NCBI GenBank assembly: GCA_001917175.1
Contig: MNTV01000020.1
Span: 114,810-178,809 of the forward strand
DNA: 64,000 nt
Direction of reading: 5' to 3'
Origin: Azospirillum sp. 51_20
Lineage (GTDB): Bacteria; Pseudomonadota; Alphaproteobacteria; RF32; CAG-239
Shown here piece after piece: positions 1,212-30,916 of the stretch (its first letter is position 1; the number at the start of each line of letters is the position of its first letter). The notes beneath the pieces are model-generated. The model was not told where the DNA came from. It did not search any database and saw only the letters and a program-made list of their open reading frames with translations. A program made the translations under genes and the position numbers.

Positions 1212-1238
1212 TTACATTAAACATTTTTTGTGTATAAT
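1212..1238 (+). promoter_or_regulatory. Candidate repressor-maintenance promoter
   Basis: TTACAT (1212-1217) followed by an extended -10, TGTATAAT (1231-1238), 19 nt upstream of the RBS-supported ATG at 1257. The spacer is short (15 nt). Confidence 0.35.
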
Positions 1239-1256
1239 AGACAAAAAGGAGTAACC

Positions 1257-1895
1257 ATGAATATAAAAGAAAGACGAAAAGAATTGGGAATGTCGCAAGC
1301 AGAATTAGGCAAAAAAGTCGGCCTATCACAACAGCACGTTCAAAGGATTGAAAATGGTTATGAAATAGGTTCGGACCTAATTCCCCTTTTTTCAAAAGCA
1401 TTACAAGTGCCAATATATGAGCTTTTACCCGATAACTTAAAATATTTAGCACAAAATATAAACACGACCGAATCCGACAATTTGGTTAAAATCGATGTTT
1501 TGGATGTTGTTGCCTGCTGTGGTAACGGGGTCGAGAACTTTTCGGAGAACATTATCGGGCAACATATGATGACCCTGACAGCCCTGCGCGAGTTGACCGC
1601 CACCGCACCGGAAAACATAAAAATCATCCGTGCTATCGGCGATTCTATGACTCCCACCATCCGCCCCGGCGAAATGTTGTGGATAGACGTTTCCTACACC
1701 TCCCCATCGTCTGACGGGCTGTATCTAATTCGCATCGGCAAAGAACTACTGGTGCGGCGTATCCAGCTGAACCCGTTTGACGGCAGCGCGGTCATTAAGG
1801 CGGACAACGAAGCATACCGGTCTTTTCCGGCAGAAAGTTTTGAAGCTGTCCCCGTCCTCGGCCGGGTGATATACCATGTGGTGCGCATGGTATAA
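1257..1895 (+). CDS. CI/LexA-like phage repressor (XRE HTH + S24 peptidase-fold domain)
   Basis: MNIKERRKELGMSQAELGKKVGLSQQHVQRIENG is an XRE HTH. GDSMTPTIRPGEMLWID is the S24 Ser motif. GGAG RBS precedes the ATG at 1257. The track start at 1230 falls inside the -10 element. Confidence 0.85.
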   Translation: MNIKERRKELGMSQAELGKKVGLSQQHVQRIENGYEIGSDLIPLFSKALQVPIYELLPDNLKYLAQNINTTESDNLVKIDVLDVVACCGNGVENFSENIIGQHMMTLTALRELTATAPENIKIIRAIGDSMTPTIRPGEMLWIDVSYTSPSSDGLYLIRIGKELLVRRIQLNPFDGSAVIKADNEAYRSFPAESFEAVPVLGRVIYHVVRMV

Positions 1896-4313: not shown

Positions 4314-5030
4314 ATGAGTATTTATGAGAAATTAGGACAAATTCAAAAGACGTTGAAAGCCCCTAAAAATCAAAGAAACAAATTTGGGGGGTATAATTAC
4401 AGATCATGCGAAGACATTCTTGAGGCAGTTAAGCCGTTGCTTGACGGGTGTGTTTTAACCGTATCCGATGAAGTCGTTTCTTTGGGAGATCGGTTTTATA
4501 TCAAAGCAACCGCCCGCCTTGCTTTATCCGGAGATGAATTTGTCGAAAACACAGCCTGGGCGCGTGAACCGGAAACCAAAAAAGGGATGGACGAAGCTCA
4601 AATCACAGGAGCAACATCTTCGTATGCCCGCAAGTATGCGCTCAATGGCTTATTGGCTATAGATGACACAAAAGACGCGGACGCTTTGAATAAAGAAGAA
4701 AACAACAAAGCTTTTGAAAAAGCCGCTGCAGCGGAAAAAGCAGCCCAAACAAAGGCAACCAATGCCGCAATCAAAACCGGCGGCGAATATATCGCCCCCA
4801 AACAGCAGCAAACGCTTGAAGAACGTTATAAAAAAGCTTTGTCGTATTTAAAAACACAAACATCTTTCAAAAGCAAATCTGTTGCAGACAGTATAAACAC
4901 GCTGCTTATGGATCTTAAAAAAGCAGGAACTGCCGGCTGGCATGACGACATCATGGCTGAATATAACAGGCTTTCTGCAATCGACGATTTTATTCCGGAC
5001 GGCGGCGTCGTGAAAGATTATAGAGTTTAG
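4314..5030 (+). CDS. erf: ERF-family single-strand annealing recombinase
   Basis: KFGGYNYRSCEDILEAVKPLL and ATSSYARKYALNGLLAIDD are typical ERF-superfamily motifs. Confidence 0.75.
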   Translation: MSIYEKLGQIQKTLKAPKNQRNKFGGYNYRSCEDILEAVKPLLDGCVLTVSDEVVSLGDRFYIKATARLALSGDEFVENTAWAREPETKKGMDEAQITGATSSYARKYALNGLLAIDDTKDADALNKEENNKAFEKAAAAEKAAQTKATNAAIKTGGEYIAPKQQQTLEERYKKALSYLKTQTSFKSKSVADSINTLLMDLKKAGTAGWHDDIMAEYNRLSAIDDFIPDGGVVKDYRV

Positions 5031-5032: not shown

Positions 5033-5455
5033 ATGCAGATTACCAAAGATTATGCCCGCAGGATATTTCAGGGATTGCCGGCAGCTCTTGCCAAAATCGA
5101 GCGGATAGAGGGTGACCAAGTTTATTTTGAACTGCAATCGCCGACGGCGTGGAAAACCGCCAAGCAAAACAACCTGTTTCATTCGCTTTTGCAATGTTTT
5201 TGGAGTTCCGGCTGTGCCAGCTTTGGCGACTATGACAGTTTGCGGCTTTACTACAAGCGGGTTGCCGGGCTGGTGAAGAAAAAAGACGGCATGCTGTTTG
5301 AAAGCAGTTGGTCAGAAGCAAAAAAAGAGCAGGCTCGGGTGGCAATTGACATGCTGATGCGCGATATGGACATGGCCGGCGTTATCGGCAGCGGACAGGG
5401 TAAAAAATACGAAGACATCTTAAAAGGCATCAAACAATTTTATCAGGAGTTTTGA
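5033..5455 (+). CDS. Hypothetical phage protein, possibly NinB/Orf-like recombination mediator
   Basis: 140 aa. KQNNLFHSLLQCF resembles the NinB DQNRKLWACLGDV segment. Sits next to the ERF gene. Weak by-eye similarity only. Confidence 0.4.
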   Translation: MQITKDYARRIFQGLPAALAKIERIEGDQVYFELQSPTAWKTAKQNNLFHSLLQCFWSSGCASFGDYDSLRLYYKRVAGLVKKKDGMLFESSWSEAKKEQARVAIDMLMRDMDMAGVIGSGQGKKYEDILKGIKQFYQEF

Positions 5456-5463
5456 AAAATATG

Positions 5464-5493
5464 TTGACTTTTGGCAAAACATACGGCTATACT
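5464..5493 (+). promoter_or_regulatory. Candidate internal promoter upstream of the BRO gene
   Basis: TTGACT-N18-TATACT within the 221-nt non-coding gap between 5455 and 5677. Confidence 0.35.
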
Positions 5494-5676
5494 GGCGGCA
5501 GAGTTCAAAGCTCTGACACAAGCGGACACACCGCCCCCGAAAGATTTGGCGAGTTTTTTATATCTTGTTTAGTCGGGAGTGCGGCTAATATATCGAATAT
5601 GCCCACCTATCTTGTGTTAGGCTTTGAGCTCCCGACACCTCACGGTTTGAGGGGTTTTCAAAGAGGAACACAAGAT

Positions 5677-6342
5677 ATGACAAATTCAATTTCTATTTAC
5701 AATTTCAACAATAATCAAGTACGCACGGCTAATATTGACGGTGAACCGTGGTTTTGTCTGGCTGACTGCTGCGCGGCTCTTAAAATTAAACAGAACCGCG
5801 ACACGGCAACTCGATTGTCGCAAAAGGGTGTCGGAAAAACCGACATCCTTACCGCTGGCGGTAAGCAGGAAGTAACCTTTATCAACGAACCGAACTTGTA
5901 CCGCTTAATCTTCCGCAGCAATAAACCTCAGGCGCAGGCGTTCGCTGACTGGGTTTATTCCGAAGTTTTGCCCTCTATCCGCAAAACCGGCGGTTACGGC
6001 GTTCCCGCCCCTGTTGATATGAAAGCCGTCGGCGGGCTGGTCAAAAAGTGCTGCGCCGTCGCCGTGCGGGAAGAACTTGCCAAAGCTTTTGACGACCTTG
6101 TCTTCCGGGAAACAATCAAAAGCATTGTCCGCGAGGCCGTGCGGGACGAGGTGGCGGACTGGTTCTTAAAAGACGGGATAAAAGAAGACACTTTCAACAC
6201 CTCGCCGACTGCAGACGGTCTGCCGGCTGTCAACTGGGTAGTTGGTATCAGCCATGGGGCAACCGTGCTTTATGAGCTGATACAACAGTATCAGAAACGG
6301 CAAAAAGAAGCCGTTGCCCTGCTGGAGAGCCGGAAATGCTGA
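5677..6342 (+). CDS. BRO-N domain protein (phage antirepressor family)
   Basis: IYNFNNNQVRTANIDGEPWFCLADCCAALKIKQNRDTATRL...NEPNLYRLIFRSNKPQAQAFADWVYSEVLPSIRKTG. The ATG at 5677 follows AAGAGGA. The N-terminal 75 codons of the track ORF look non-coding. Confidence 0.75.
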   Translation: MTNSISIYNFNNNQVRTANIDGEPWFCLADCCAALKIKQNRDTATRLSQKGVGKTDILTAGGKQEVTFINEPNLYRLIFRSNKPQAQAFADWVYSEVLPSIRKTGGYGVPAPVDMKAVGGLVKKCCAVAVREELAKAFDDLVFRETIKSIVREAVRDEVADWFLKDGIKEDTFNTSPTADGLPAVNWVVGISHGATVLYELIQQYQKRQKEAVALLESRKC

Positions 6343-7000: not shown

Positions 7001-7024
7001 CAAAATTTGAAAGGAAAAAAATAA

Positions 7025-7547: not shown

Positions 7548-8162
7548 ATGAAAATACTCAATTTATATGCCGGCATAGGCGGAAATCGCAAATTGTGGGG
7601 AAACGATCATGAAATAACCGCCGTAGAGCTGCGTCCGGAGATAGCTGCAATTTATCAGGACTTTTTCCCAAACGACCAGGTGGTCGTCGGAGACGCGCAT
7701 CAGTATTTACTGGAGCATTACCGGGAGTTTGACTTCATCTGGAGTTCACCGCCCTGTCAAAGTCATTCAACCCTACGCGGCCGTACTTGTGTTGCCAAAG
7801 GACAATCAAAACCCATTTATTTCGACACCAAACTCTGGCAAGAGATAATTTTTCTCAAAACATACTGTAAAAAGGATTTTGTTGTTGAAAATGTAATACC
7901 TTATTACAAACCGTTGATTGCCCCGGATTTCAAGATTCAACGGCATTTATTTTGGAGTAACAAATTCATTCTTTCGACACATTTTGAGAAAGATAATATA
8001 GACAGGGGAAATGTAAAAATATGGCAAGATAATACAGGGTTTGACCTCGGCAATTATCAGTTCAGTCGTAAATCCGGTCTGCGTAAGGAGCAAATTCTTA
8101 AAAACTGTGTCCGGCCGGAACACAGATGTGGGGGGTACCGCAAAAAGTCTGCGTCGCTATAG
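7548..8162 (+). CDS. DNA (cytosine-5)-methyltransferase, catalytic part (frame breaks at a G6 tract)
   Basis: Motif I LNLYAGIGGN, motif IV SPPCQSHS, motif VI VVENV, motif VIII IQRHLF. The frame ends 27 nt after the G6 run at 8130-8135. Confidence 0.75.
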   Translation: MKILNLYAGIGGNRKLWGNDHEITAVELRPEIAAIYQDFFPNDQVVVGDAHQYLLEHYREFDFIWSSPPCQSHSTLRGRTCVAKGQSKPIYFDTKLWQEIIFLKTYCKKDFVVENVIPYYKPLIAPDFKIQRHLFWSNKFILSTHFEKDNIDRGNVKIWQDNTGFDLGNYQFSRKSGLRKEQILKNCVRPEHRCGGYRKKSASL

Positions 8163-9829: not shown

Positions 9830-9830
9830 A

Positions 9831-10952
9831 ATGAAAATTCCTTATTTAAGACATAAAAAGCTAAAAAATGGAGAAATAGCTTATTATTTCGACATTCCAA
9901 AGCATATTATGCCGGCGGGTTGCGAATTAAAACATTCGTACCCGCTAGGCAAAAACTATGTCTTAGCATGCCGGGAAGCCCTAAACCTTTTTGAAAGATT
10001 AGAGAATTTCAGGAAAAGCGGAGAAAATATACAACCTAAATCTTTGGCACATATATGGTCTATTTACAAGGAGAGTCGCCTATTTAAGTCCATAAAAAAA
10101 TCAACGGCCCGCACATATCAATATACCTTTGATATACTGTCAAAATTAAAATCAGGAAAAAGCGGCCGTTCTTTCAAAGATGTTCCTCTGGATAGTTTTG
10201 ATTACGATAGCGCATATAATTTGTATGAGAAATTTGTTATCTGCTTCAAAAAAACTCAAGCTATGTATTGTATAACTGTCTTAAAAATGCTTTATAATTT
10301 TGGTTTTAACAAGGGCATTTTTACAAAAAACAATCCATTTGCCAATTTAAGGATAAAAAAGAATAAACCTAAAAAGTTTGTTATTCCGCACGAACACGTA
10401 AAAAGTATAATTGACAAAGCCAGAGAACTTGGCAAAGATAACGACAGTTATTTAGCCGTAGCCCTTGCGACCGAACTTAATTTTTATATTGCACAAAGAA
10501 ATGCTGATGTGCTGAAATTACAAGATAAAGACATTTACAAAAAAGGCGACAATTATTTTTTTAACATTAACCAAAATAAGGTTGACAACGTAAACGTCAA
10601 AGTACCTATTCCACCTCACCTTGTTGAAGAAGTTTTAAGTAAAAAAGGTTACATCATTGCTGATCGTTTTGGTAAATTCGACGTTCAAAGATTTAGCCGC
10701 TATTTTAAGAAAATACGAGATATTTTAGGATTCGATGAAAGATATATATTTAAAAATATGAGGCATACCGGAAGTACTGCCTATGTCGAGGCCGGAGTGG
10801 CCACAAACGCTATTATTTCAATTACCGGACACACTAACGAGGCTATCTTTAATCAAGTATATAAAGGCAATACGGAAGAGGTGACTTTGCCGGCATTGAA
10901 GAAACGGCTTGAGGCAGAAAGTCGGAATAACAAAATAAAAGAGTCGGAATAG
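9831..10952 (+). CDS. int: Tyrosine recombinase / phage integrase
   Basis: 373 aa. The C-terminal catalytic region has QRNADVL, MRHTGSTAYVEAG and ITGHTNEAIFNQVYKG (R..H-x-x-R..H..Y pattern). Adjacent to the tRNA fragment. Confidence 0.9.
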   Translation: MKIPYLRHKKLKNGEIAYYFDIPKHIMPAGCELKHSYPLGKNYVLACREALNLFERLENFRKSGENIQPKSLAHIWSIYKESRLFKSIKKSTARTYQYTFDILSKLKSGKSGRSFKDVPLDSFDYDSAYNLYEKFVICFKKTQAMYCITVLKMLYNFGFNKGIFTKNNPFANLRIKKNKPKKFVIPHEHVKSIIDKARELGKDNDSYLAVALATELNFYIAQRNADVLKLQDKDIYKKGDNYFFNINQNKVDNVNVKVPIPPHLVEEVLSKKGYIIADRFGKFDVQRFSRYFKKIRDILGFDERYIFKNMRHTGSTAYVEAGVATNAIISITGHTNEAIFNQVYKGNTEEVTLPALKKRLEAESRNNKIKESE

Positions 10953-10996
10953 ATTAAATAAAGCAAGCAAATACAATATGTTGCACAAACAACACA

Positions 10997-11123: not shown

Positions 11124-12815
11124 TCAAACGGTAAATTCCGACAAAGCTGCCGGACTTTTGAACACGTTTTTTAAGAATTCGATAAAATCATCCGCCTGTT
11201 CGGGGGTAACGTTTTTATTTTCATGTTTTTCCGGAGGAGAAAAATCTTCAAACATCTGACCAACTGTCGGCGAATATCTGAAATTTCCCAAACAAGGCGC
11301 TTTTCCGCTTAAATAGTCGTAAACGCTCATGCCTTTGGAATCTTTCAGATTAATGTCCGCGCCTTTTTCCGCCAGATATTTTGCAATTTCCAGATTTCCT
11401 TCCTGCACGGCATACATCAGGGCCGTGCGTTCGCCGTTTACAAGACAAATGTTCTCCCAGCAGCCCGCATCTTCCGAATATCCCTTATTCGTTTGCGCGT
11501 TTATATCCGCTCCGGCCTCAAGCAAAATTTTCACACTTTCCGCAAACCCGTATTGAGCCGCGTACATCAAAGCGGTTTTGCCGAAAGCATTTCCCGCGTC
11601 AACATCCGTGTTCAGACCGAAGCAGCTCAGTTTTTCCTCATTATACGGACAGGTTTCAATCAGCATTTTCAAAACATCGGGACGATGAACGCTGACCATT
11701 AAAATTTCATCCGCCTGATGAGGCGTTTCCGGTTCCGCAAATTCTTCCCCTTTTAATTTTTTGTCCTCAATCCATGCTTTTATTTCTTCCGCGGGAACTC
11801 CGGAAAGGATTTTATAGCGCAGGGTTTCCCTGTTTACCGGAAAACTTGCCGCCGCCCGGGGAATCATCACATAACGGGCATATTGCCGGGCTTTGCCTTC
11901 ATCAACCTTAAAAGTTTTTACATAATGCCGCGTCAGCTTGTCGACCGCTTTGTCAAACCCGATACCGTGATTGACAACTTCCGAAAAATATTTGTAATTG
12001 GGATATGATTCCATCGCCCAGGCTTCAAGCGGCAAGGCTTGCAAATATTCTTTCTCGCCATAACTTCGTTCAAAATTCCAATCGGGATCATAATGACTGA
12101 CTATATTCTTATATACATCTTCGGCCATATACACATAGCGTATCGAACCGGGATTATCCAATTCCAGTTCCCGCTGAATATAATTCCGATACTCTTCAAC
12201 ATCATCGGGAAAATCGTATTGCGGATACTGGCCACAGTTGGAAATATCCAGCGTTTCGGCGCCGTGTCCGCCGCCGGCGCTGTCCAAAACGGCCGTTAAA
12301 TGGAGTTTTTGAGCCGTCGGGCAGGGAACCGCGATTTTCCACGGAACATAAAGCATATCGCCGCTCACATCCCCCCAAACGCTGAAAAATTTGGAAAAGT
12401 TTAAAGCGCCGATTTCTATCAGACAGCTCAAATCTTTGTAGCATTTTAAATAATCGTCTTTGATCAGCCCTTCGTATTGCCCCTGATATATTCCGTAAAA
12501 AGGGGAATCGGGAACAAGCTTTTTATATTGCGCAACCACGTCCGTATGCAGCCGGCGGGCAATTTGTTCAAATTCGAGAGTATTTACTTTTTGCGGTTCG
12601 TAAATGCTGAGCAGTATCAGATATTCCATTGCGGCAAAGCGGTTTTTGTCCGCCAGTTTTTTTAAATCTGCCAAAGCCTGCCCGGGGTTGTCTTTTACGG
12701 ATTTTACAATCTCTTCGTACCGTTTATCCGCATTTTGCCCGGTTTCCCGCGTTTCTTTGCACATAAGAGAAAGAGGAAACAACAGACATACCAGAACAAT
12801 CAAACAATGTTTCAT
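11124..12815 (-). CDS. Exported ankyrin-repeat protein
   Basis: The ATG at 12815 follows GGGAGGG. N-terminal signal-like MKHCLIVLVCLLFPLSLMC. C-terminal ankyrin repeats GKTALMYAAQYGFAESVKILLEAGADINAQ and RTALMYAVQEGNLEIAKYLAEKGADINLKD. Confidence 0.7.
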   Translation of the reverse strand: MKHCLIVLVCLLFPLSLMCKETRETGQNADKRYEEIVKSVKDNPGQALADLKKLADKNRFAAMEYLILLSIYEPQKVNTLEFEQIARRLHTDVVAQYKKLVPDSPFYGIYQGQYEGLIKDDYLKCYKDLSCLIEIGALNFSKFFSVWGDVSGDMLYVPWKIAVPCPTAQKLHLTAVLDSAGGGHGAETLDISNCGQYPQYDFPDDVEEYRNYIQRELELDNPGSIRYVYMAEDVYKNIVSHYDPDWNFERSYGEKEYLQALPLEAWAMESYPNYKYFSEVVNHGIGFDKAVDKLTRHYVKTFKVDEGKARQYARYVMIPRAAASFPVNRETLRYKILSGVPAEEIKAWIEDKKLKGEEFAEPETPHQADEILMVSVHRPDVLKMLIETCPYNEEKLSCFGLNTDVDAGNAFGKTALMYAAQYGFAESVKILLEAGADINAQTNKGYSEDAGCWENICLVNGERTALMYAVQEGNLEIAKYLAEKGADINLKDSKGMSVYDYLSGKAPCLGNFRYSPTVGQMFEDFSPPEKHENKNVTPEQADDFIEFLKNVFKSPAALSEFTV

Positions 12816-12941
12816 TCGCCCTCCCGTTAAACGTCTGCACAAATAATATTTAATCCGGATTTATTTTTCCTTAACCCCGTCCGGCCGGCATACGGCCATA
12901 CGCACCGCCTTCCCCGAAAAGAAGGAATCCTTGCCGCAGCG

Positions 12942-19913: not shown

Positions 19914-21143
19914 CTACAGCAGCTTTAACGGCTGGGAAGGATCACGTTCCTGTTTTTTTACCGTGGCCGGGGGTTGCTTTTTCGGCGCCCGGTAGCCCAT
20001 TTTCTTGTCAATGTAACCGCCCAGTCCGCGGCCGAAAGTCTGACGGATGTACTGTGTCATTTCGCTGGGCTTTTCCTTGAAGGTTTCCGCCGCCGCCTGC
20101 GCCTGCAGCACTTCCTCGATTTTCAGGATTTTTTCCAAAGCGTCGCGTTTTTCCGCCGCGCCTTCGATACCGTATACCGAAGCGATGTTAAACCAGATGT
20201 ACGCCTGATATTCGTTCTTCTGATAAGAGGTTCCCGCCGCCAGAATGTTGCCGAGATCCATCATTGCCTGAACGTTTCCCTGATGGGCGGCTTGGGTCAG
20301 ATATTTGACCGCGTTACCGTAGTTGCGGGGCGTACCTTCCGCATTGATGTAACGCTGCGCCAGTTCATACTGGGCTTCATCATAAGACACGGCAGCCTGT
20401 TTGATCAGGTCAAAGGCCTTTTTAAAATCCTTGGCCACCACAAAACCGCGGTAATAGGAATAGCCCATCATATATTGTGCGGTGATGTTGCCGCCTTCCG
20501 CCGCCTGCTGCAACAGTTCGACGATTCGGTTGTTGGAAACGCCGCTCGACGGCGAAGTCAGATAAATGAAAGCAAGGTTGATCGCCGCTTCCTTGTTGCC
20601 GAGTTTGGCCGCCTTGTCAAACATCTCAACCGCCTTGTTGACGTTCTTTTCGGTGCCGATGCCGCTGTAATAAAGGCTGCCGAGGTTATTGACCGCAATC
20701 ATGTCCTCCTGGGAAGCCGCCATCGAATAATAGCGGAAAGCCTTTTCCTCGTCGCGGGTCACGCCGTTTTCGCCGTAAAGATACATGTAACCGAGAGTCA
20801 GACAGGCGTCAACGTCGCCTTCTTCCGCCAGACGGGTCATCCGGTCGAGGAAGTTTTCCTGGGGCTCATCAGGTTTGCGGGCAAATTCCTCCACTTTCTT
20901 TTTGTTTTTAAGGAACGAGAAATTCAGAAACGAAAACATTCCTTCGTCGTCCACTTTCACTTTTTCCTCTTCCTTTTTGTTTTCCGGCTCAACCCGGCGT
21001 TCGGGTTTGTCGGACACGGAAACCTTTTCTTCCTTTTTGGGCTCCTCCCCGAACAAATCAATCAGCGACATGTCGTCGTCGGCCGCCCGGGCAGCAAAGG
21101 AAACAAGCATCGCACAGGCGAAAAGCGCAAACATTTTCGGCAT
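19914..21143 (-). CDS. Exported Sel1-repeat (TPR-like) protein
   Basis: Signal-like MPKMFALFACAMLVSFAARA. Multiple Sel1 repeats (GYMYLYGENGVTRDEEKAFRYYSMAA, NNLGSLYYSGIGTEKNVNKAVEMFDKAA ...). Start uncertain (21143/21134/21185). Confidence 0.75.
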   Translation of the reverse strand: MPKMFALFACAMLVSFAARAADDDMSLIDLFGEEPKKEEKVSVSDKPERRVEPENKKEEEKVKVDDEGMFSFLNFSFLKNKKKVEEFARKPDEPQENFLDRMTRLAEEGDVDACLTLGYMYLYGENGVTRDEEKAFRYYSMAASQEDMIAVNNLGSLYYSGIGTEKNVNKAVEMFDKAAKLGNKEAAINLAFIYLTSPSSGVSNNRIVELLQQAAEGGNITAQYMMGYSYYRGFVVAKDFKKAFDLIKQAAVSYDEAQYELAQRYINAEGTPRNYGNAVKYLTQAAHQGNVQAMMDLGNILAAGTSYQKNEYQAYIWFNIASVYGIEGAAEKRDALEKILKIEEVLQAQAAAETFKEKPSEMTQYIRQTFGRGLGGYIDKKMGYRAPKKQPPATVKKQERDPSQPLKLL

Positions 21144-21364
21144 TTTAAAAATCCCATCGTTAAACCAGACATTTTGTCTTATCATATACGAAAATTCCGC
21201 ATGTTCAAACTTTTTTACCGTCTTTTCTGCCGATTTTTGCCTTTCGGAACAAAGAAACGACAGCCGGCAGCACGGCCGTCTTAAGATTTTTGTTTATTTT
21301 TGCCGCCGCCGCGCTTATAATGCGCGCGGAATTTTTTATGTAAAAAGACAAAAGGATCAAGACC

Positions 21365-23818: not shown

Positions 23819-23905
23819 TTTGGGCTATCCGCAGGTCTTCCGGAAACAAAAAAACGGAAGAACTTTCGCTCTCCCGTTTTTCTTAAAAAATCTCATCCGG
23901 CCGGA

Positions 23906-24412
23906 TTATTCGGCTTTTTTCGATTTTTTTTCGGCCTTTTTCTCTGCTTTGGCTTCTTCTTTTTTAACTTCTTCCTCGGCAGCCTTTTCCGCAGCTTCGG
24001 CAGCGGCCTTTTCAGCGGCTACGCGAGCCAGGTCTTTGGCGCCTTTGGCGTTGACGTCGCGGTCAACCAGTTCGATGATGGCCATCGGAGCGGCGTCGCC
24101 GTAACGGATGCCGGCCTTGAGAACGCGGGTATAACCGCCGTTGCGTTCTTTATAGCGTTCGGCTAAAGTAGAGAACAGTTTGGCAACGACTTCGTTGTCG
24201 CGCAAAAAGGCCAAAGCCATACGACGGCTGTTCAGATCGCCTTTTTTGGCAAACGTAATCATACTGTCGGCAAAAGTTCTCAGTTCTTTTGCCCTGGGCA
24301 GGGTAATCGTAATCTGTTCGTGGGTCAGCAAAGCGTTGGTCAGGTTCGAGAACAAAGCTCTTCTTTGGCTTCTCGGCATGTTGAATTTTCTGTGTTTGTC
24401 ACCATGTCTCAT
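23906..24412 (-). CDS. rplQ: 50S ribosomal protein L17 with Ala/Glu/Lys-rich C-terminal extension
   Basis: [45 protein letters not shown]... is L17. The tail is [37 protein letters not shown]. Confidence 0.9.
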
Positions 24413-24529
24413 GGCAGTTTCCTTTCATTTCTCTGATGCTTTGACAGGCAAAGCGGATAAAACATAAAGCCGTCACTACCTTCATAAATGCCGGCGTTCC
24501 GTGAATTTAAAACTCACAATTTCAAGCGC

Positions 24530-24558
24530 AATATACAGAAGATTTTTTCTTTTGGCAA
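24530..24558 (-). promoter_or_regulatory. Candidate stand-alone promoter for rplQ
   Basis: Reverse strand reads TTGCCA-N17-TATATT, about 120 nt upstream of the rplQ start. Confidence 0.4.
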
Positions 24559-24666
24559 GCCTTTTTTATCCGTCGTTTTTTTGCCGGAAAACGGCAAAAT
24601 AAAACTTGTTTTTCCGCTTCTCCGAAGCTACTCTGGCAAAAACGAAAAAATCTCGGGAGGATAAAA

Positions 24667-25104
24667 ATGCGGCTTTTGATTCAGCGGGTAAAAGAAGCTT
24701 CGGTCACGGTTGACGGGCAGCGGGTGTCGGCCATCGGCGCCGGGCTGCTCGTCTTTATCGGCGTCTTCAAAAACGACGGCCGGGAACAGGCGGCGGCGCT
24801 TGCCAAAAAGACCGCCGCGCTGCGCATATTCGAAGACGAGGCCGGCAAAATGAACCTCTCGGTCAAAGACACCGGCGGCAGCGCGCTGGTCGTTTCCCAG
24901 TTTACGCTGGCCGGCGACACTTCCCGCGGCAACCGCCCCGGCTTTGACAACGCCGCCCGGCCGGAAACGGCCAAACCGCTCTACGAATATTTTTCCGAAT
25001 GTCTGCGGGCCGAAGGAATCGAGGTGCAAAACGGCATCTTTCAGGCCGACATGGCGGTCGGGCTGATCAATGACGGCCCGGTTACCTTTGTGCTTGAAAA
25101 ATAA
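24667..25104 (+). CDS. dtd: D-aminoacyl-tRNA deacylase
   Basis: [17 protein letters not shown]...[18 protein letters not shown]...[12 protein letters not shown] are classic Dtd motifs. Confidence 0.9.
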
Positions 25105-25107
25105 CCT

Positions 25108-25626
25108 TTATTTGAAATCTTTGTAAATGCGCGAGGCCACCGGTCCCTTGTCGTTCTGGTACTTGCCGTGATAAAGCCTGATTTCGCCCGCGGTCTTCCA
25201 AAACGTGATCTGCGCGATCGGCATGTTTTTGTACAGCCGGACCGGCATTGTCGCATACAGGTGAAAAGTGACGTTGCATTTGCAGCCGATGTCAAACAAA
25301 CCGGAAGTGATGTGAATGAACAGCCCCAGCCGGGCAATGCTCGACTTGGCATGCACGATCGGCACGTAGAAGTCGCTGCCGACAAACTCGTTGCTGCAGC
25401 CAAGCAGAAATTCGCCGCGTTTCATCTCATAGCCTTCGTCCGGAATTTCAAACGTCCTGGTATGCGGTTCCTTTTTCGGGTCCAGCACTTCGTCGGTGTA
25501 CATTACCAGTTTGTCGCCCAAAGTCAGATCGTAAGAATTCGTCGTTACCGCCGCCGGGTCAAACGGCTCGATCACGATTTTCCCGTTCAAAACCTCCTCA
25601 GTGATTTTATTTCCCGTCAGTATCAA
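25108..25626 (-). CDS. dCTP deaminase-fold protein lacking the catalytic Glu (paralogue 2)
   Basis: TTG start at 25626 follows GGAGAAAG, giving (M)ILTGNKITEEVLNGKIVIEPF. It has AKSSIARLGLFIH and the C-terminal KYQNDKGPVASRI. It shows NVTFHLY where Dcd has VLEFYN. Confidence 0.7.
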   Translation of the reverse strand: MILTGNKITEEVLNGKIVIEPFDPAAVTTNSYDLTLGDKLVMYTDEVLDPKKEPHTRTFEIPDEGYEMKRGEFLLGCSNEFVGSDFYVPIVHAKSSIARLGLFIHITSGLFDIGCKCNVTFHLYATMPVRLYKNMPIAQITFWKTAGEIRLYHGKYQNDKGPVASRIYKDFK

Positions 25627-26116
25627 TTTCTTTCTCCATTTTCGAGATTTGCGGGCAGGAATAAGCCGAATATCCGCCCTCGTACAAAGAGGCGTCGCCA
25701 TAGTTCAGCCAGAATGAAATCTGCCCGGTGATCATTCCCGGATATACCCGGAAAGGCTTGGCCGTCACCAGTTCCAGCGTCCATTTGTGAACCGAACCGG
25801 TATGCCCGAGATCGGCCGAAACCTGCAAAAACAGTCCCAGCCGCCCGGTCGAACTGCGGCCGATCAGCGACATCGCGCATTTGCGGCTGCCGAGCGTTTC
25901 CAGCGTATGCCCCAGATAAACCCGGTCGGGATACAGGACAAACCCTTCTTCGGGAATCTTCACCGTCCTGTACTTTCCGTCGTCTTCCTTAAACGTCAGC
26001 GTTTCCCCCAGCCGGTAGTTATAGCTGTTGGGATTGAGCTGGTCCTCGTTAAACGGCTCGATCACGATGTCGCCGTTTTCCACATACTTCTTAATTTCCG
26101 AACCGGTTAAAATCAT
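25607..26116 (-). CDS. dcd: dCTP deaminase-fold protein (paralogue 1, catalytic Glu present)
   Basis: MILTGSEIKKYVENGDIVIEPF, GRSSTGRLGLFLQ, KWTLELVT (Glu retained). The C-terminal tail is divergent. Confidence 0.75.
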   Translation of the reverse strand: MILTGSEIKKYVENGDIVIEPFNEDQLNPNSYNYRLGETLTFKEDDGKYRTVKIPEEGFVLYPDRVYLGHTLETLGSRKCAMSLIGRSSTGRLGLFLQVSADLGHTGSVHKWTLELVTAKPFRVYPGMITGQISFWLNYGDASLYEGGYSAYSCPQISKMEKEIDTDGK

Positions 26117-26125
26117 TGCCTTTTC

Positions 26126-27091
26126 CTAAAACGCCGTCAGCTCGATCCGTCCGTCTTCAATCCGGCAGCGGCCGCCGACGGGAAAAGTGACGATCGGCGT
26201 CGTGTGGCCGAAATCGACGTTGGCAATCACCGGTTTACCCGCCAGTTCCTTTTTGGCGCCCAAAATCCGTTCCAGCAGCGGCCGGTTCATTTGGTTTTCC
26301 GGCTCAAAACGCCCGAACACCACCGCCCTGACCGAAGCAAAGTCCGGATGCAGGCACAGCGCCTGCAAATTGCGGTTAAAAGTCCAGACCTCGTGTTCCG
26401 CGCAATGTTCCAGAAACAAAACGCTGTCTCTGATATCGGGAAAATAGGGCGTGCCCTTCAACTCGTCCAAAAGCCCCAGATTGCCGCCGACCAACCGTCC
26501 TTCCGCCGCTCCGGAAGCAATCTGCCAATAGCCCTCGTTTTTGACGAACTTACGGTTTTCCTGATCCCGGTACCACGGATCGTCCGACCACTCGGCGGCC
26601 GGATGCAGCTCGAACGGCTCGTTTTGAAACAGGCATTTCTTAAAATATTCGATCGTATAGTCGATTCCCTTCAGCATGCCGAAAGTGGAAAAATGCGGTC
26701 CCGAATAGGTGACCAGACCGGTCTTGGCATAAATTGCGTTTGCCAGCGCGGTAATATCGGAAAAACCACACAGGATTTTCGGATTTTCGGCAATCAGCCG
26801 ATAGTCGATCCCGGCCAGAATTTCAACCGAGTTAAATCCGCCGATCACGGTCAGAATGCCGTCGACCGTCCGGTCGGCAAAAGCCTCATGCAAATCCTCC
26901 AGCCGCGCCGCGGCAGACGAAGAACAAAATTCGTCGGTTTCTTCCGCATGCCGGCCGAAAGAAACGCTCAGTCCCATTTCCGCCAGACGCTCGCAGGCGA
27001 TCCGCCGGCATTCCCCGCTGACGATTCCCAAACTGCGCGCCGGTGCAATCACCCGGACATGCGCGCCTTTTTTCAATTTTGCCGGTATCAT
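26126..27091 (-). CDS. S66-family serine peptidase (LD-carboxypeptidase LdcA / MccF type)
   Basis: VRVIAPA..., TVIGGFNS, nucleophile motif CGFSDITAL, C-terminal ANVDFGHTTP. Confidence 0.85.
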   Translation of the reverse strand: MIPAKLKKGAHVRVIAPARSLGIVSGECRRIACERLAEMGLSVSFGRHAEETDEFCSSSAAARLEDLHEAFADRTVDGILTVIGGFNSVEILAGIDYRLIAENPKILCGFSDITALANAIYAKTGLVTYSGPHFSTFGMLKGIDYTIEYFKKCLFQNEPFELHPAAEWSDDPWYRDQENRKFVKNEGYWQIASGAAEGRLVGGNLGLLDELKGTPYFPDIRDSVLFLEHCAEHEVWTFNRNLQALCLHPDFASVRAVVFGRFEPENQMNRPLLERILGAKKELAGKPVIANVDFGHTTPIVTFPVGGRCRIEDGRIELTAF

Positions 27092-28134
27092 CTCTCATTC
27101 CTTTCCTTTTGCAAATTCAACAAAGTTCCCCGATTCAGTTCTTCGATTCGTCCGCCTTTGGCGGCAAACAGCGCCGTCATCGCCGGAGCGGCCCGCACGT
27201 CACCGAAAATCATCGCTTCCGAATGATGCAGCAGTCTGGCCAGTTCCTGCGGCCGCATTCCCGCCCGTCCGGCAAAATAATACACGCCGCGCAGATACTT
27301 GTAGAGAATTTTGCTCTGCTCGTCGCGGCTTGACGGCCGCAGTCCCTCGCGCATCATTGCCTGGGAAGTGATGATGCAGTCTTTGAACTTACGGTTCGTA
27401 TCCAAAGCCGGATGCTTCGGAAACGGATAGCAGTCCATCACGTGAGCCAACCCGTATTTTGCCTGCATGATCACCGTATCGCCGAAACCGACTTCCATAA
27501 ACAGCGGCCGCCGGCTTTCCTGCTCACGGAAAATAATGAAATTGCCGACGTCGGAATATTCCCCGGTGCGTTTGTGGCGAACGGCAAAATTGAAATTTTC
27601 CCCGTAAACGCCGTCAATGCCGACCGTATGACGGTAATATTTTTCCGGATGAGCGTCAACTTCCACCGCCGGCCAGCCGCTTTCCCGCACCAGCTGATAC
27701 AGTTCTTCGTCTTCCGAGTGCACCCTGAGCAGCAGTTCCTCCGGCGCAAGCTTCACCTTGTCGGAAAAGAAGGCCAAAGCCTGCGCAAAGGCCTCATCCT
27801 TAAGCTCATAGGGAAAAACGGTATCGATATTGGTAAAATAAGAACCCCATTTCGGCTCAAAATCGTCCGCCAGCATGTTTTTAACGTTGCGCGTACGAAC
27901 CGCGTCCTGAGCAATCACCAGTCCGCCGGCGGGAAGTTTGCCCGGATAAATATAATCTTTTTTCAACGCCGAAATCGCCGCGCCGACAAAAACCACGCTT
28001 TCATCCTGTTTGGAAGTAACCGACAGCGGCGCCGCTTCCCGGTATCCGGCCGCCCGATAATGCCGCAAAAAGGAAGACACCAGTCCCCGCCGGCACGCGT
28101 TCAGCTGCTGCCAATCTTCAAGCGCCGGCCTCAT
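27088..28134 (-). CDS. Hypothetical 348-aa protein with by-eye resemblance to the AlaRS class II catalytic core
   Basis: FLRHYRAAGYREAAPLSVTSKQDESVVFVGAAISALKK / IAQDAVRTRN / GSYFTNIDTVF / EDEELYQLV / FMEVGFGDTVIMQAKYG run parallel to AlaRS FLDFFHSKGH..SSSLVP.NDPTLLFTNAGM.QFK / SQRCVRAGG / HTFFEMLGNFSF / DDEAYEIW / DTGMGLERIAAVLQ. Coding status is solid; function is tentative. Confidence 0.45.
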   Translation of the reverse strand: MRPALEDWQQLNACRRGLVSSFLRHYRAAGYREAAPLSVTSKQDESVVFVGAAISALKKDYIYPGKLPAGGLVIAQDAVRTRNVKNMLADDFEPKWGSYFTNIDTVFPYELKDEAFAQALAFFSDKVKLAPEELLLRVHSEDEELYQLVRESGWPAVEVDAHPEKYYRHTVGIDGVYGENFNFAVRHKRTGEYSDVGNFIIFREQESRRPLFMEVGFGDTVIMQAKYGLAHVMDCYPFPKHPALDTNRKFKDCIITSQAMMREGLRPSSRDEQSKILYKYLRGVYYFAGRAGMRPQELARLLHHSEAMIFGDVRAAPAMTALFAAKGGRIEELNRGTLLNLQKERNER

Positions 28135-28943
28135 CTTCCCTTCCTCTTTTTAACACAGTCGAAAATCAGCTCGCCCGGATATTCGCCCTGCCCGAACGGC
28201 GTGCGGTCAAAATGTCCGTACAGATTTTCCACCGTCAGTTCGTTTTTCTCCAGCACCAGCGACGCCGTGTCTTTGAAAAAATAACCGGTGGTATAAAGCC
28301 ATTCGAACTTGTCGGTTTTGCCGTCCGCGTACTGTACCGAATAATATTCCTCAATGTCCTGCGTCTGCTTGAAATAATCGCGCTTGTTGATTTCCACCCG
28401 GCGATTGATTCGGTTGCCCTCTTCGTCATGATAATTGCCGTCGAAAACCACGCCTTCGCGCACCAGCATATGCACCCAGGGATTAAACAGGTCGAAGGCA
28501 AAGCGCCCGTTTTCCGTCAACAGATCCCTGGTGCTTTTAACAAAACGGTCCATCTCCTCAACCGAACGGCAATGTTGCAAAACCCGGAACGGCGCAAAAG
28601 CGAAGGCAAACTTCTTATCACTCTCAAACGCGTTGATGTCCGCCACATGGGGAACAATGTTGTCGATTCTCCGCGCCCGTGCCTTGTCGGCCAGCACCGC
28701 GACTTCGTCCCCGATCACGTCAACCGCATGAAATTCAAGATCAGGATGCTTCTCGGCAATCGGCAGCAGAACCCGCCCGGTGCCGGCGCCGATTTCAATC
28801 ACCCGGTTGTTGTCCAGCCGGCTCTTGTATTCCGTCAACAAACGGCTGTAAAAAGCAATGTCTTCCTTGCGTTCCTTGTAAAAAACGTCATAAAGTTCCG
28901 AAGCGTTTTTATATCTTTTCATCTTCACCTGCCCGACCGGCAC
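28131..28943 (-). CDS. Class I SAM-dependent methyltransferase
   Basis: Motif I VIEIGAGTGRVLLPIAEKH followed by EFHAVDV. An alternative start at 28922 (MKRYKN) is possible. Confidence 0.8.
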   Translation of the reverse strand: MPVGQVKMKRYKNASELYDVFYKERKEDIAFYSRLLTEYKSRLDNNRVIEIGAGTGRVLLPIAEKHPDLEFHAVDVIGDEVAVLADKARARRIDNIVPHVADINAFESDKKFAFAFAPFRVLQHCRSVEEMDRFVKSTRDLLTENGRFAFDLFNPWVHMLVREGVVFDGNYHDEEGNRINRRVEINKRDYFKQTQDIEEYYSVQYADGKTDKFEWLYTTGYFFKDTASLVLEKNELTVENLYGHFDRTPFGQGEYPGELIFDCVKKRKGR

Positions 28944-29022
28944 ATCGTTTCACCACTCCGCCGTCAAATAATCCTCCCCCGCCGGCGGCCGGGAAACATT
29001 GCAAAGTCTTTTATCGGGCGTT

Positions 29023-29049
29023 TTGTATACTGTACTACAGTTTGTACAA
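29023..29049. promoter_or_regulatory. Palindromic operator-like site upstream of the five-gene operon
   Basis: TTGTAT-ACTGTA-C-TACAGT-TTGTACAA. The core ACTGTACTACAGT (29029-29041) is a perfect 6-1-6 palindrome, about 80 nt upstream of the 28943 start. Confidence 0.3.
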
Positions 29050-29824
29050 AAAACAAGGACAAATATAATATATAAATAGTTGAAACGATATTTTTTTCAA
29101 TTAAAGAAGACGCGAAAAAAACGCAAAAGCGGTTTTTTCATATACGCCCCTGGAGGTGCCGGCAAATACCCGAAGGGCTTAAATGCCGCCTTCGACAACC
29201 ATCACATCATCACTCCGGAAGGCGCCGGCAAACGCCCGAAAGGCACAGCACAAGACGGTCCGGCGGAGCAAAACCTGCCCGACTCACCGCAAACGGATCC
29301 AAGTCTGCCGTCAGGTAACCCGCCCCATACTTTTTAAAACCGATTCCGGACATACCCGTTTCTTCTTCCGGTCATTTCTCCCCATGCTGCCGGTATGAAC
29401 AATAATGCGGGCTTCCGCGCTTATATCCTTCATTTTTCCCCATCCGCAAGCGCAAAACTGTTCCGACCTCTCAAATTAAACCGGTGAACTCCCGCAGACG
29501 GCGTTTCCGGCAGCATACAAACGATCGGGACAAACTCCGTCCCTTCCGGCCGGCACGGTTCCCCGAATATCTCTCCCATAGCCGGATATTTTGCAGCGCC
29601 CGGCAGCAAAAAAGGTTAAGGCCACTGCCTTCTCCGAACATCGGCCGTCATATTACGCCTTTCGGCAATATTCATAAACTATGGTATTTTTTTGGGGGCG
29701 GATACCATGATGTATCCGTAAAAAAGCCTCCGGCTTTTATTCAGACAATTGCCAAACCGTCTTTACGGCAACGGTGCTTTTTATGCACAAAGCTAAAACA
29801 CAAAACCAGCTTTTCCCTGACACG

Positions 29825-29851
29825 AAAAAAGCCCCGGCAAAACACCGGAGC
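29825..29851 (-). terminator. Rho-independent terminator
   Basis: Reverse strand: GCTCCGG-TGTTTTG-CCGGGGC followed by T6, downstream of 29872-30564. Confidence 0.6.
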
Positions 29852-29871
29852 CTTGTGCTAAAAACGCTTTG

Positions 29872-30564
29872 TCAGATTTTCACCAGCATTCGCGAACTGT
29901 CGTTGCCGCCGATTCGGGAAAATTCCCCGGCATAAGGATACCAAACCGTAAACTCCCCGTTTTCAGCCCTGCCTGTAAGCAGCCAACGAAACACCCCGTC
30001 AAAATCGGGAACACCGGCCTCATTCATCATGGCGCTCAATTCGTCTCTGCAACTCATTATATACGGCACGTCATCTTCAGCCGTCAAACGCAGATTACAT
30101 TTCGCAGCTGCCGACTGAATATCTTTGGCAAACAGATTAACCGGCGTTATGCCGGCAATGACCAGTACGGAAGAAAGCGCAAATCCGCGTAACCTTCCGC
30201 TTTTCTCAATCACATAACAAAGGCGTCCGGCATATTGTTCACGTACCGCCGCATACACTTCTGAAGAAGCCGCGTCATCGGCAACCGTAATAATCCGGTC
30301 GGAAAAACGCTTTATCAGCTTAGCGCTCAAAACCGGCTGTTCGATTCGCAGCAGGCGCCTCCGCAACAGCTCTTCCACCTGTTTGTCATGATCGGCATAA
30401 GGTTCATAACCGCGTATCATCCAATTGATCCAGGCTTCATAAACAAACGACCAGTCTTTGCCGTCGGCAAAAGATTGCCATTGTTCAACGGAAGCGTTAA
30501 CTCCGGGTGTCTTCACTGCTGTTTTTGGGCTCTCTGACAATTTTTCTTTTTGTAACAATTCCAT
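29872..30564 (-). CDS. Hypothetical protein (230 aa)
   Basis: Long ORF with its own terminator; no motif recognised. Confidence 0.6.
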   Translation of the reverse strand: MELLQKEKLSESPKTAVKTPGVNASVEQWQSFADGKDWSFVYEAWINWMIRGYEPYADHDKQVEELLRRRLLRIEQPVLSAKLIKRFSDRIITVADDAASSEVYAAVREQYAGRLCYVIEKSGRLRGFALSSVLVIAGITPVNLFAKDIQSAAAKCNLRLTAEDDVPYIMSCRDELSAMMNEAGVPDFDGVFRWLLTGRAENGEFTVWYPYAGEFSRIGGNDSSRMLVKI

Positions 30565-30657
30565 AAAGATAATAATTTTAGGTTAGTCTTAATAATTAAT
30601 CTCAGGTCGGGCAGGATAGCACTTTAAATTAAAAATACAACCCCGAAATTTGCCCCA

Positions 30658-30916
30658 CCATAAACGCCCGCCGGCAAGCCGCCGGATTTTCCCCGGCCGG
30701 ATTCCCCCCCCTTGTCAAAACGGCTTCTGTCTTTCACTTCCCCTGCCTAAAAATCTGCCGCCTCAGCCTTCCCGCCATAAACGCCCGCCGGCAAGCCGCT
30801 GAATTTTCCCCGGCCGGATTCCCCCTCTTGTCAAAACGGCTTCTGTCTTTCACTTCCCCTGCCCAAAAATCTGCCGCCTCAGCCTTCCCGCCATAAACGC
30901 CCGCCGGCTTTCCGCC
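30658..30916. repeat. Tandem direct repeat, ~2.2 x 116-117 bp
   Basis: CCATAAACGCCCGCCGGCAAGCCGC...CTGCCGCCTCAGCCTTCCCG starts at 30658, 30775 and 30891 (last copy partial). Confidence 0.8.

Follow-up and report, generated by a model that had tools for sequence, protein, structure and literature searches.

Several Trojan-horse antibiotics or aminoacyl-adenylate mimics are produced together with self-resistance, for example microcin C with MccF, ascamycin with AcmD, AcmE, and AcmF, and albomycin with its own seryl-tRNA synthetase (SerRS). Pyrimidine nucleotides can also be the warhead in this kind of molecule, as the cytidine-based microcin C-like compounds illustrate. In the ascamycin (acm) cluster, AcmD is the cluster alanyl-tRNA synthetase (AlaRS), which provides supply and self-resistance, and AcmE is a hydrolase which removes the alanyl group. 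AcmF is a truncated AlaRS-like enzyme without most of the ATP-binding residues, and it moves alanine from Ala-tRNA to the nitrogen of a nucleoside sulfamate (PMC12945691). Its Glu232, at the position of Asp235 in E. coli AlaRS, holds the aminoacyl amine (PMC12945691). AcmF is the sole characterised truncated AlaRS-like enzyme that we found. Here we analyse a five-gene operon in a 64,000-nucleotide stretch of contig MNTV01000020.1 from Azospirillum sp. 51_20 (the whole stretch is called the window). The operon encodes a class I S-adenosylmethionine (SAM)-dependent methyltransferase, a truncated AlaRS-like protein, an S66 serine peptidase, and two proteins of the dUTPase/Dcd fold, DcdA and DcdB. 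Our favoured interpretation, at a probability of about one in two, is that the operon serves the biosynthesis of, and self-immunity to, a methylated aminoacyl-(deoxy)pyrimidine nucleotide which inhibits an aminoacyl-tRNA synthetase (aaRS).

The five open reading frames (ORFs) lie on the minus strand from 25108 to 28922 or 28943, depending on the start codon of the first gene, and direct reading of the junctions shows one translationally coupled unit (Table 1). ATGA start/stop overlaps join the methyltransferase and AlaRS-like genes (28134/28131) and the AlaRS-like and peptidase genes (27091/27088). A 9-nt gap, GAAAAGGCA, separates the S66 stop codon from the DcdA ATG at 26116, and the DcdA and DcdB genes overlap by 20 nt (25626/25607). 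The DcdB gene starts with TTG at 25626, preceded by GGAG. The orthologous genes begin at this same point. Most of them also use TTG, and in L018, L019, and L021 the start codon is an ATG with an overlap of 4 nt. A longer DcdB ORF from ATG 25701 was rejected as unsupported, since the orthologues begin at the TTG 25626 position. The methyltransferase most likely starts at ATG 28922 rather than at GTG 28943, because AGGTGA is located upstream and the inspected orthologues begin with MK[RK]Y[KRQ]NAS. There are no convincing internal terminators in the operon, only weak hairpins (3 G-C pairs) inside the ORFs. In the whole region, 20 terminator-like sites were counted against 13.7 +/- 3.9 expected. 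The DcdB stop codon is 3 nt away from the stop codon of the convergent dtd gene. A previous reading made from the DNA letters alone (the sequence-only reading) had described this five-gene coupled unit, and its coordinates, overlaps, 9-nt gap, and lack of internal terminators all matched on direct inspection. Of the outer gene starts that it gave, the orthologues support 25626 for the last gene, and 28943 for the first gene most likely gives way to 28922.

The unit is conserved as a whole. The five families are neighbours in all 12 alphaproteobacterial species representatives that were found, save that L014 has lost the methyltransferase and that the contig of L011 ends within the S66 gene. 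Every alphaproteobacterial locus spanning the unit keeps the order methyltransferase, AlaRS-like, S66, DcdA, DcdB, again with the methyltransferase remnant of L014 as the exception. In most species the unit is located between rpoA and dtd/rplQ, and in L015 and L018-L021 it is found elsewhere. Because it stays colinear and yet occupies at least three genomic positions, it appears to move as one mobile unit. The sequence-only reading had proposed to check whether the five families are co-conserved as neighbours, and in these 12 representatives they are. Parts of the unit also occur side by side in many metagenome contigs and in Actinobacteria, Pseudomonas, Pantoea, Bacillus, and Dyella.

We inspected seven more distant contexts of AlaRS-like genes, and an S66 peptidase gene was present within about 7 kb in 7/7. 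A full-length class II aaRS above the NCBIfam cut-off was encoded in five of the seven: threonyl-tRNA synthetase (ThrRS) in three actinobacterial contexts, prolyl-tRNA synthetase (ProRS) in L024, and glycyl-tRNA synthetase (GlyRS) in L025. The other recurring partners were an AsnA/AsnRS-core-like protein, the same methyltransferase family, P450-like genes, nonribosomal peptide synthetase (NRPS) parts, an ATP-binding cassette (ABC) exporter, HIT proteins, and regulators. L004 has the methyltransferase, AlaRS-like, and S66 genes with a kinase-HIT fusion in place of the Dcd pair. These contexts fit a resistant or dedicated target enzyme combined with MccF-type immunity.

The Dcd pair leads to similar surroundings. 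On an integrase-flanked island of P. viridiflava it is accompanied by a methyltransferase, an AlaRS-like protein, a metallophosphoesterase, two L-amino-acid-ligase-like ATP-grasp proteins, and a major facilitator superfamily (MFS) transporter, in the order methyltransferase, DcdB, DcdA, AlaRS-like, metallophosphoesterase, ATP-grasp, MFS. B. inaquosorum carries two class IIb aaRSs, a C-A NRPS, an S66 peptidase, a methyltransferase, DcdB, DcdA, an ATP-grasp protein, and an MFS transporter. An IncFII plasmid of Pantoea agglomerans (L191/L192, 7600-15100) encodes an Asp/Glu racemase, DcdA, DcdB, an ATP-grasp protein, SerRS, an AsnA-like protein, and an MFS transporter, and in Dyella the pair follows HAD and HIT/GalT-like genes. 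In 18 of the paired metagenome loci the pair has 3 kb or more of sequence on either flank. A methyltransferase gene was found in 12 of these 18, an AlaRS-like gene in 10, and an S66 gene in 5.

The AlaRS-like protein scored below the family cut-offs, with E = 2.7e-6 for Pfam tRNA-synt_2c (26.6 against a cut-off of 30.3) and 27.3 bits for TIGR00344 alaS (cut-off 457). Its AlphaFold2 model, made with 21 family members in the alignment, reached a predicted local distance difference test score (pLDDT) of 93. The top Foldseek matches of the model were the AlaRS catalytic fragments 1riq, 3hxu, and 9jc7 (E about 1e-13, query TM-score 0.70). The modelled fold is that of an AlaRS catalytic fragment and not that of an unrelated housekeeping family. 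This result for the product of 27088-28134 upholds the by-eye alignment to the AlaRS core in the sequence-only reading. The protein consists of the aminoacylation domain and the first helical tRNA-recognition domain, without the editing and C-Ala domains. The helical domain keeps the AlaRS signature DxI...(D/E)G..PS and lacks the Asn/Asp pair which reads G3:U70.

In the alignment to E. coli AlaRS, R69, E209, N212, D235, G237, and R242 correspond to R80, D195, N198, E214, G216, and V221 of the window protein. The segment D235TGMGLER242 is aligned with E214VGFGDTV221, and the glycines G237 and G239 are kept, as are R69 and the E209/N212 positions. The GFGDTV in place of G-x-G-x-E-R had been read correctly before, and the change extends over the family: the motif-3 Arg is present in no aligned family member, and the Asp235 position is Glu family-wide. 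The protein differs from a canonical AlaRS in score, architecture, the motif-3 Arg, and Asp235. With the motif-3 Arg gone, it is unlikely to make the aminoacyl-adenylate that the sequence-only reading gave as the product of aaRS-like enzymes. Transfer of an amino acid from aminoacyl-tRNA, as by AcmF, is the more likely activity by analogy. The close family is rare, with 29 clusters among 5.8 billion proteins. Its members occur in 14 of 185,579 species representatives, of which 12 are Alphaproteobacteria from gut or rumen and 2 are Actinobacteria. A profile search gave a wider family of 708 representatives (50% identity), nearly all 320-400 amino acids long, and 239 had E values below 1e-30. 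No AlaRS-like relative was found in IMG/VR. Almost none of 20 AlaRS-like clusters had a name, the few names being 'hypothetical protein', and AcmF was not identified among them.

DcdA and DcdB share 35% identity, and the DCD domain (PF22769) is matched by both (E = 5.6e-30 and 5.2e-32), in agreement with the two dUTPase/Dcd-fold proteins noted before. Against TIGR02274, with a cut-off of 92.8, DcdA scored 62 and DcdB 107 bits. Alignments with Dcd structures, that of M. tuberculosis among them, show that the deaminase Glu (E115), the Ser, and the Arg are retained in DcdA, and that the Asp position of GxxDxG is unconserved. In the alignment with 2qxx, DcdB has His122 for the deaminase Glu; its Ser and Arg, its dUTPase-type Asp (Asp112), and the lid motif at its C-terminus are retained. 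The full residue set of a dCTP deaminase (Glu, equivalent to E138 in E. coli and E129 in M. tuberculosis, with Ser, Arg, and Asp) is in neither protein alone.

The same division is seen across the family. We collected metagenome loci whose DcdB-type gene has an identity of at least 44%, and a DcdA-type gene adjoins it in 48/48 of them. At the Glu position, the paired DcdB-type proteins (n=48) have Gln in 38, His in 6, and Met in 4, with invariant Ser, Arg, and Asp. The DcdA-type proteins (n=46) have Glu in 46/46, nearly invariant Ser and Arg, and an unconserved Asp position. Unpaired homologues (n=32) have Glu in 32/32 and invariant Ser, Arg, and Asp, and the viral homologues in IMG/VR (n=80) are all unpaired, with Glu in 80/80 and the Asp kept. 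The adjacency and the residue patterns indicate that DcdA and DcdB are an obligate, residue-complementary pair. DcdB had been called a degenerate Dcd. This description is right for the loss of the deaminase Glu only; the gene is not decaying, because the 85-98% identity among orthologues indicates strong constraint on DcdB. By its sequence conservation, DcdB appears to be a conserved, specialised partner of DcdA. DcdB-type proteins are scattered over unrelated bacteria and are called 'dCTP deaminase' in the sources (P0181-P0274). This annotation is probably wrong for the subfamily, because every paired member has Gln, His, or Met in place of the catalytic Glu.

The S66 protein contains both the Peptidase_S66 (PF02016) and S66C (PF17676) domains. 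Its closest solved relatives are the 'MccF-like' BA_5613 of B. anthracis (4e5s and 5usd, E = 2.6e-109) and Lmo1638 (2.5e-102), whose function was not found in the searched literature. The E values were 1e-38 to 1e-34 for MccF structures and 1e-22 to 1e-17 for LdcA structures, and the score against the LdcA equivalog NF008424 was 119.7 (cut-off 378). The Ser-Glu-His triad motifs GFS111D, FLE228, and GH296T are aligned with those of 4e5s and 5usd. By these comparisons the protein belongs to the MccF-like branch, clearly nearer to MccF than to LdcA, and the earlier assignment to the MccF type stands. It is predicted to be a self-immunity hydrolase for an aminoacyl-nucleotide amide bond.

The methyltransferase matched Pfam Methyltransf_12/25/31, and NCBIfam agrees on a class I SAM methyltransferase. 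With it, Pfam and NCBIfam scans (below the Pfam cut-off for the AlaRS-like protein) and structure confirm all five domain calls made from the sequence. A profile search of the Protein Data Bank (PDB) gave 9SOT, CcbJ, DesVI/TylM1, CalS10, and the cypemycin N-terminal methyltransferase, which suggests that the nearest characterised relatives are small-molecule amine N-methyltransferases. The actinobacterial methyltransferase coupled to an AlaRS-like gene is 40-43% identical to the window protein with 83 invariant residues, and on this similarity we regard the methyltransferase as a specific partner family of the AlaRS-like gene.

The locus resembles the ascamycin system in several ways. Judged by the published description of AcmF, the window protein is also truncated to the aminoacylation and tRNA-recognition domains, has lost ATP-binding residues, and has Glu at the Asp235 position. 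Both are AlaRS-like proteins of roughly 350-370 amino acids, and in the sister clusters this protein is paired with a full-length cluster aaRS and with a hydrolase that could undo the aminoacyl-nucleoside bond. The operon differs from the acm cluster in that sulfamate-pathway genes are lacking, the hydrolase is of the S66 family whereas AcmE is an alpha/beta hydrolase, and the Dcd pair implies a pyrimidine (deoxy)nucleotide rather than 2-chloroadenosine sulfamate. The operon is like microcin C in that an MccF-type S66 peptidase is encoded with the would-be aminoacyl-nucleotide enzymes. In contrast to microcin C, there is no MccB (ThiF/E1-like) match among the five proteins and no MccA gene or conserved small upstream ORF. 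The amino acid would be attached here by an aaRS-like transferase, and in relatives that have a peptide carrier, ATP-grasp ligases instead of the ribosome would make it.

Phosmidosine, an N-prolyl, O-methyl phosphoramidate of 8-oxoadenosine, and the N-methylphosmidosines are chemical analogues of the predicted product class only. They share the aminoacyl-N-P-nucleoside and a methyl group, and the sister cluster L024 encodes ProRS, a methyltransferase, an AlaRS-like protein, an AsnA-like protein, and an S66 peptidase. The predicted nucleobase here is a pyrimidine, and the literature searches turned up no phosmidosine biosynthetic gene cluster. The Dcd pair has the fold of the bifunctional DCD-DUT of M. 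jannaschii and M. tuberculosis, and DcdA and DcdB together hold its Ser, Arg, Asp, and Glu set. However, the residues are split over two obligately adjacent paralogues, so that DcdA alone has the Glu and DcdB alone has the conserved Asp, and the pair sits in secondary-metabolite-like clusters rather than in dTTP synthesis. By analogy, the operon would work like the AcmD/AcmF/AcmE trio and microcin C with MccF, and it is a member of neither. The nucleotide module made of a Dcd pair is without precedent, and two of the enzyme families have real novelty.

From gene structure, folds, residue patterns, and conserved linkage we infer the product, its activity, and all steps of the following scheme, which we propose because of the recurring gene grammar and the AcmF precedent. 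Five elements recur: an enzyme of the AlaRS-like, AsnA-like, or ATP-grasp kind for amino-acid attachment, the Dcd pair or kinase/HIT as nucleotide module, a methyltransferase, a hydrolase of the MccF type, and a spare aaRS, whose specificity varies, together with exporters. By analogy, this set reads as the grammar of Trojan-horse or aminoacyl-adenylate-mimic antibiotics with self-resistance. DcdA and DcdB would complement each other in acting on a cytosine (deoxy)nucleoside triphosphate, with deaminase chemistry from DcdA and dUTPase-type chemistry at the alpha-phosphate from DcdB, and would together give the nucleotide scaffold. A pyrimidine (deoxy)nucleotide is implied since the nucleotide module is a Dcd pair. 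The AlaRS-like protein, which has no ATP-clamping motif-3 Arg and keeps the amino-acid and nucleotide pocket, would aminoacylate this scaffold, probably from aminoacyl-tRNA. The methyltransferase would tailor the product, most likely at the amine and possibly at the phosphate as in phosmidosine. The MccF-like S66 peptidase would cleave the aminoacyl-nucleotide bond inside the producer and so give self-immunity. The product would mimic an aminoacyl-adenylate and may be an antimetabolite like processed microcin C, ascamycin, or phosmidosine. The operon most likely makes and protects from an amino-acid-linked pyrimidine nucleotide, because its parts recur beside spare aaRS genes and exporters in unrelated bacteria.

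The main inference of the sequence-only reading was that the operon could serve to make, modify, or detoxify an aminoacyl- or peptidyl-(deoxy)cytidine nucleotide. Taken as a (deoxy)pyrimidine nucleotide, this idea is supported by the AlaRS fold, the gene linkage, and the MccF-side S66 peptidase. That reading had also stated that no pathway or defence system of such a composition is known to have been described. We found no paper describing one in literature searches on AlaRS-like proteins with biosynthetic gene clusters, MccF with ThrRS or dCTP deaminase, and dCTP deaminase with aaRS and ATP-grasp. A paper on tRNA-deacylase genome mining is about AlaX and does not cover the module (PMC13149037).

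Several observations weigh against the biosynthetic interpretation. The window protein keeps Asn212 of E. coli AlaRS, whereas AcmF has Gln219, and a regular expression built from the published key residues of AcmF gave 0 matches in the top 150 family representatives. The loss of the motif-3 Arg speaks against ATP use yet does not exclude it. The operon has no exporter, spare aaRS, or sulfamate/phosphoramidate-forming gene, and therefore shows no evident source of the acceptor group and no export route. The expected product of Dcd plus Dut, dUMP, is an ordinary metabolite. In L014 (8800-10000), the methyltransferase has shrunk to a remnant of about 50 amino acids with the other four genes intact; the methyltransferase may be dispensable, or the remnant may be an assembly artefact. 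Six of the 18 well-flanked Dcd-pair loci have no methyltransferase, AlaRS-like, or S66 gene. Two of the six, L056 (6500-12100) and L071 (6100-11300), have nucleotide-metabolism neighbours instead, namely genes for an amidohydrolase, a deoxynucleoside monophosphate (dNMP)-kinase-like protein, DcdA, DcdB, and a TLC ATP/ADP-type transporter, with a LOG/SLOG protein in addition in L056 and a HIT protein in L071. These neighbours suggest a transported modified nucleotide.

The absence of an exporter, a spare aaRS, and a peptide-carrier ligase would also be expected if the operon were an immunity or detoxification cassette only. The cell would then make no antibiotic and would inactivate the peptide-nucleotide antibiotics of gut competitors with the S66 peptidase, the methyltransferase, and the Dcd-fold enzymes, and the AlaRS-like protein would perhaps be a decoy or a re-acylating enzyme. 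Stand-alone MccF-type S66 resistance genes exist, and the closest solved relatives of the S66 protein are orphan 'MccF-like' proteins of Bacillus and Listeria. HIT proteins, which are known as resistance enzymes against phosphoramidate nucleotides, are encoded in the sister clusters L001, L004, and L026. However, no resistance enzyme is known as a precedent for four of the five genes, and the same families occur in plainly biosynthetic-looking clusters with two ATP-grasp proteins and MFS, NRPS parts, an ABC exporter, or a cluster aaRS, so we consider immunity alone unlikely. A modified nucleotide or aminoacyl-nucleotide with a physiological role inside the cell (a signal, a cofactor, or a tRNA- or translation-linked modification), with the S66 peptidase for its turnover, is improbable to a similar degree. 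It would suit the lack of an exporter, the occurrence in 12 species of a gut lineage, and the location, which in most species is within the ribosomal-protein/rpoA-rplQ region and next to dtd, the gene for D-aminoacyl-tRNA deacylase. It would also suit the Dcd-pair loci with a kinase-like gene, a TLC nucleotide transporter, or HIT rather than ligases. The position is not fixed, however, as L018-L021 and L015 differ, and islands and plasmids carry related modules along with spare aaRS genes and exporters. The rarity of the AlaRS-like subfamily (29 clusters in 5.8 billion proteins, 14 of 185,579 representatives) is atypical of housekeeping.

A nucleotide-targeting defence or toxin system had been named as an alternative. 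As anti-phage defence or a toxin, the operon would act through dCTP depletion by the Dcd-fold enzymes or a toxic nucleotide made on infection, and dCTP deaminases are known defence effectors. The integrase-flanked island of the homologous Pseudomonas cluster would agree with such a role, and so would one Dcd-pair neighbour which matches the 'GT4-conflict' glycosyltransferase family. We hold this role to be quite improbable. PADLOC-DB v2 gave no match for the AlaRS-like, S66, DcdA, and DcdB proteins and only a generic domain match for the methyltransferase (mad2, E = 3e-12). The 80 viral Dcd homologues are all unpaired and Glu-bearing, and IMG/VR holds no AlaRS-like relative; a phage origin was rejected on the same data. 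The spare aaRS, the L-amino-acid-ligase-like ATP-grasp proteins, and the MFS/ABC exporters are a signature of small-molecule production and not of abortive infection. The simplest alternative is a chance cluster of housekeeping genes, consisting of a split bifunctional dCTP deaminase/dUTPase which supplies dUMP, a murein LD-carboxypeptidase which serves cell-wall recycling, an unrelated methyltransferase, and an aaRS paralogue. Each family does have housekeeping members, LdcA belongs to the S66 family, and the NCBI label for the DcdB type is 'dCTP deaminase'. But the genes are translationally coupled, and their linkage is kept across phyla. The S66 protein is nearer to MccF, and its score falls far short of the cut-off for the LdcA equivalog. 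The settings of the Dcd pair in Pseudomonas, Pantoea, and Bacillus are strain-variable islands or plasmids and do not resemble core housekeeping loci. The linkage data largely refute a chance cluster, which we regard as highly improbable.

Within the favoured biosynthetic interpretation, a more specific chemistry can be drawn, and we offer it as a long shot. A DcdA/DcdB hetero-oligomer might couple deamination to nucleotidyl transfer, with ammonia from the DcdA site or another amine replacing water at the alpha-phosphate in the DcdB site. The resulting (deoxy)uridine 5'-phosphoramidate might then be N-acylated from aminoacyl-tRNA by the ATP-blind AlaRS-like enzyme, to give an N-acyl phosphoramidate like that of processed microcin C without MccB or a ribosomal peptide. 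The system might be modular, so that the amino acid, and thus the targeted aaRS, varies by cluster (Thr, Pro, Gly, Ser, class IIb).

If the biosynthetic interpretation is true, the operon belongs to an unrecognised, widely scattered cluster family for aminoacyl-nucleotide antimetabolites in gut Alphaproteobacteria, Pseudomonas, Pantoea, Bacillus, Actinobacteria, and candidate phyla. The cluster aaRS (ThrRS, ProRS, GlyRS, SerRS, class IIb) would then appear to name the target, which would allow resistance-guided discovery of aaRS inhibitors. The operon would also be a candidate antagonism factor of a common, uncultured lineage of the human gut, and the P. agglomerans plasmid cluster is a culturable candidate for the proposed chemistry. 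Two enzyme questions are raised by a large, truncated, motif-3-less AlaRS-like family (about 240 clusters at 50% identity below E = 1e-30) and by obligate dUTPase-fold paralogues which share out the deaminase and dUTPase catalytic residues.

A strong terminator at 29854-29828 closes orf230, the next gene upstream, and leaves a leader of about 0.9 kb before the operon. The leader contains an imperfect 31-nt palindrome, TTTTGTAcaaACTGTAgTACAGTaTACAAAA, at 29021-29051, which is unique in the window and had 0 matches in 100 shuffles. The inverted-repeat finder missed it, since its arms are short and interrupted, and it was verified by pattern search. It is a candidate operator and promoter by its sequence (Table 1), and the upstream region of about 880 bp with a palindromic operator-like site in the sequence-only reading is confirmed in this form. 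The palindrome core recurs in six related loci (L010, L012, L013, L016, L032, and L033) and lies about 100 nt before the methyltransferase ATG in all five loci whose upstream sequence was read. Its flanks have diverged in L012, L013, and L016, the more distant loci with flanks read, and the upstream region shows no conservation beyond the palindrome. It is absent from the more distant orthologous operons L006, L015, L018, L019, L021, and L004, and no regulator gene adjoins it. A riboswitch or T-box was not indicated, as Rfam gave no match over 23500-31600 at E <= 1. A precursor peptide encoded in the leader was rejected, since the small ORFs are unconserved and the leader is absent or different in most orthologous loci.

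Table 1. Positions of the operon genes, the palindrome, and other features in the window
Feature	Position	Strand	Remarks
Class I SAM-dependent methyltransferase	28131..28922	-	263 aa from ATG 28922; longest ORF from GTG 28943
Truncated AlaRS-like protein	27088..28134	-	348 aa; predicted aminoacyl transferase
S66 serine peptidase, MccF-like branch	26126..27091	-	321 aa; predicted self-immunity hydrolase
DcdA, dUTPase/Dcd fold	25607..26116	-	169 aa; deaminase Glu kept
DcdB, dUTPase/Dcd fold	25108..25626	-	172 aa, TTG start; His122 at deaminase Glu position
Palindrome overlapping promoter-like TTGTAC-16 nt-TACAAA	29021..29051	-	about 100 nt upstream of methyltransferase ATG
orf230	29872..30564	-	230 aa; own terminator
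Tandem repeat between rpoA and orf230	30654..30908		116 bp, 2.2 copies, 95% identity
CI/S24-type repressor	1230..1895
ERF recombinase	4314..5030
Bro-N protein	5452..6342
C5 DNA-methylase fragment	7548..8162
Integrase	9831..10952
Ankyrin-repeat protein	11124..12842	-	572 aa; eukaryote-like repeats
Sel1-repeat protein	19914..21185	-	423 aa; eukaryote-like repeats

The ribosomal-protein superoperon usually ends with rpoA and rplQ side by side. In 23906-32397 of the window and in L006, L012, L013, and L016, these two genes are separated by the operon and the convergent dtd gene. In L006 the methyltransferase gene begins about 120 nt after rpoA. The orf230 protein has no Pfam, NCBIfam, or PADLOC match and, among loci L001-L023, was found only in the near-identical L010. 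Together with the 0.9-kb leader, orf230 looks like an insertion between rpoA and the operon. A repeat-looking stretch occupies the position in L014 equivalent to that of the tandem repeat and was seen solely as a repetitive ORF translation. At the other end of the window, positions 1-11000 have a GC content of 0.37-0.45 against about 0.52 in the neighbouring chromosome. With its repressor, recombinase, Bro-N, DNA-methylase fragment, and integrase genes, this part is probably a prophage remnant.

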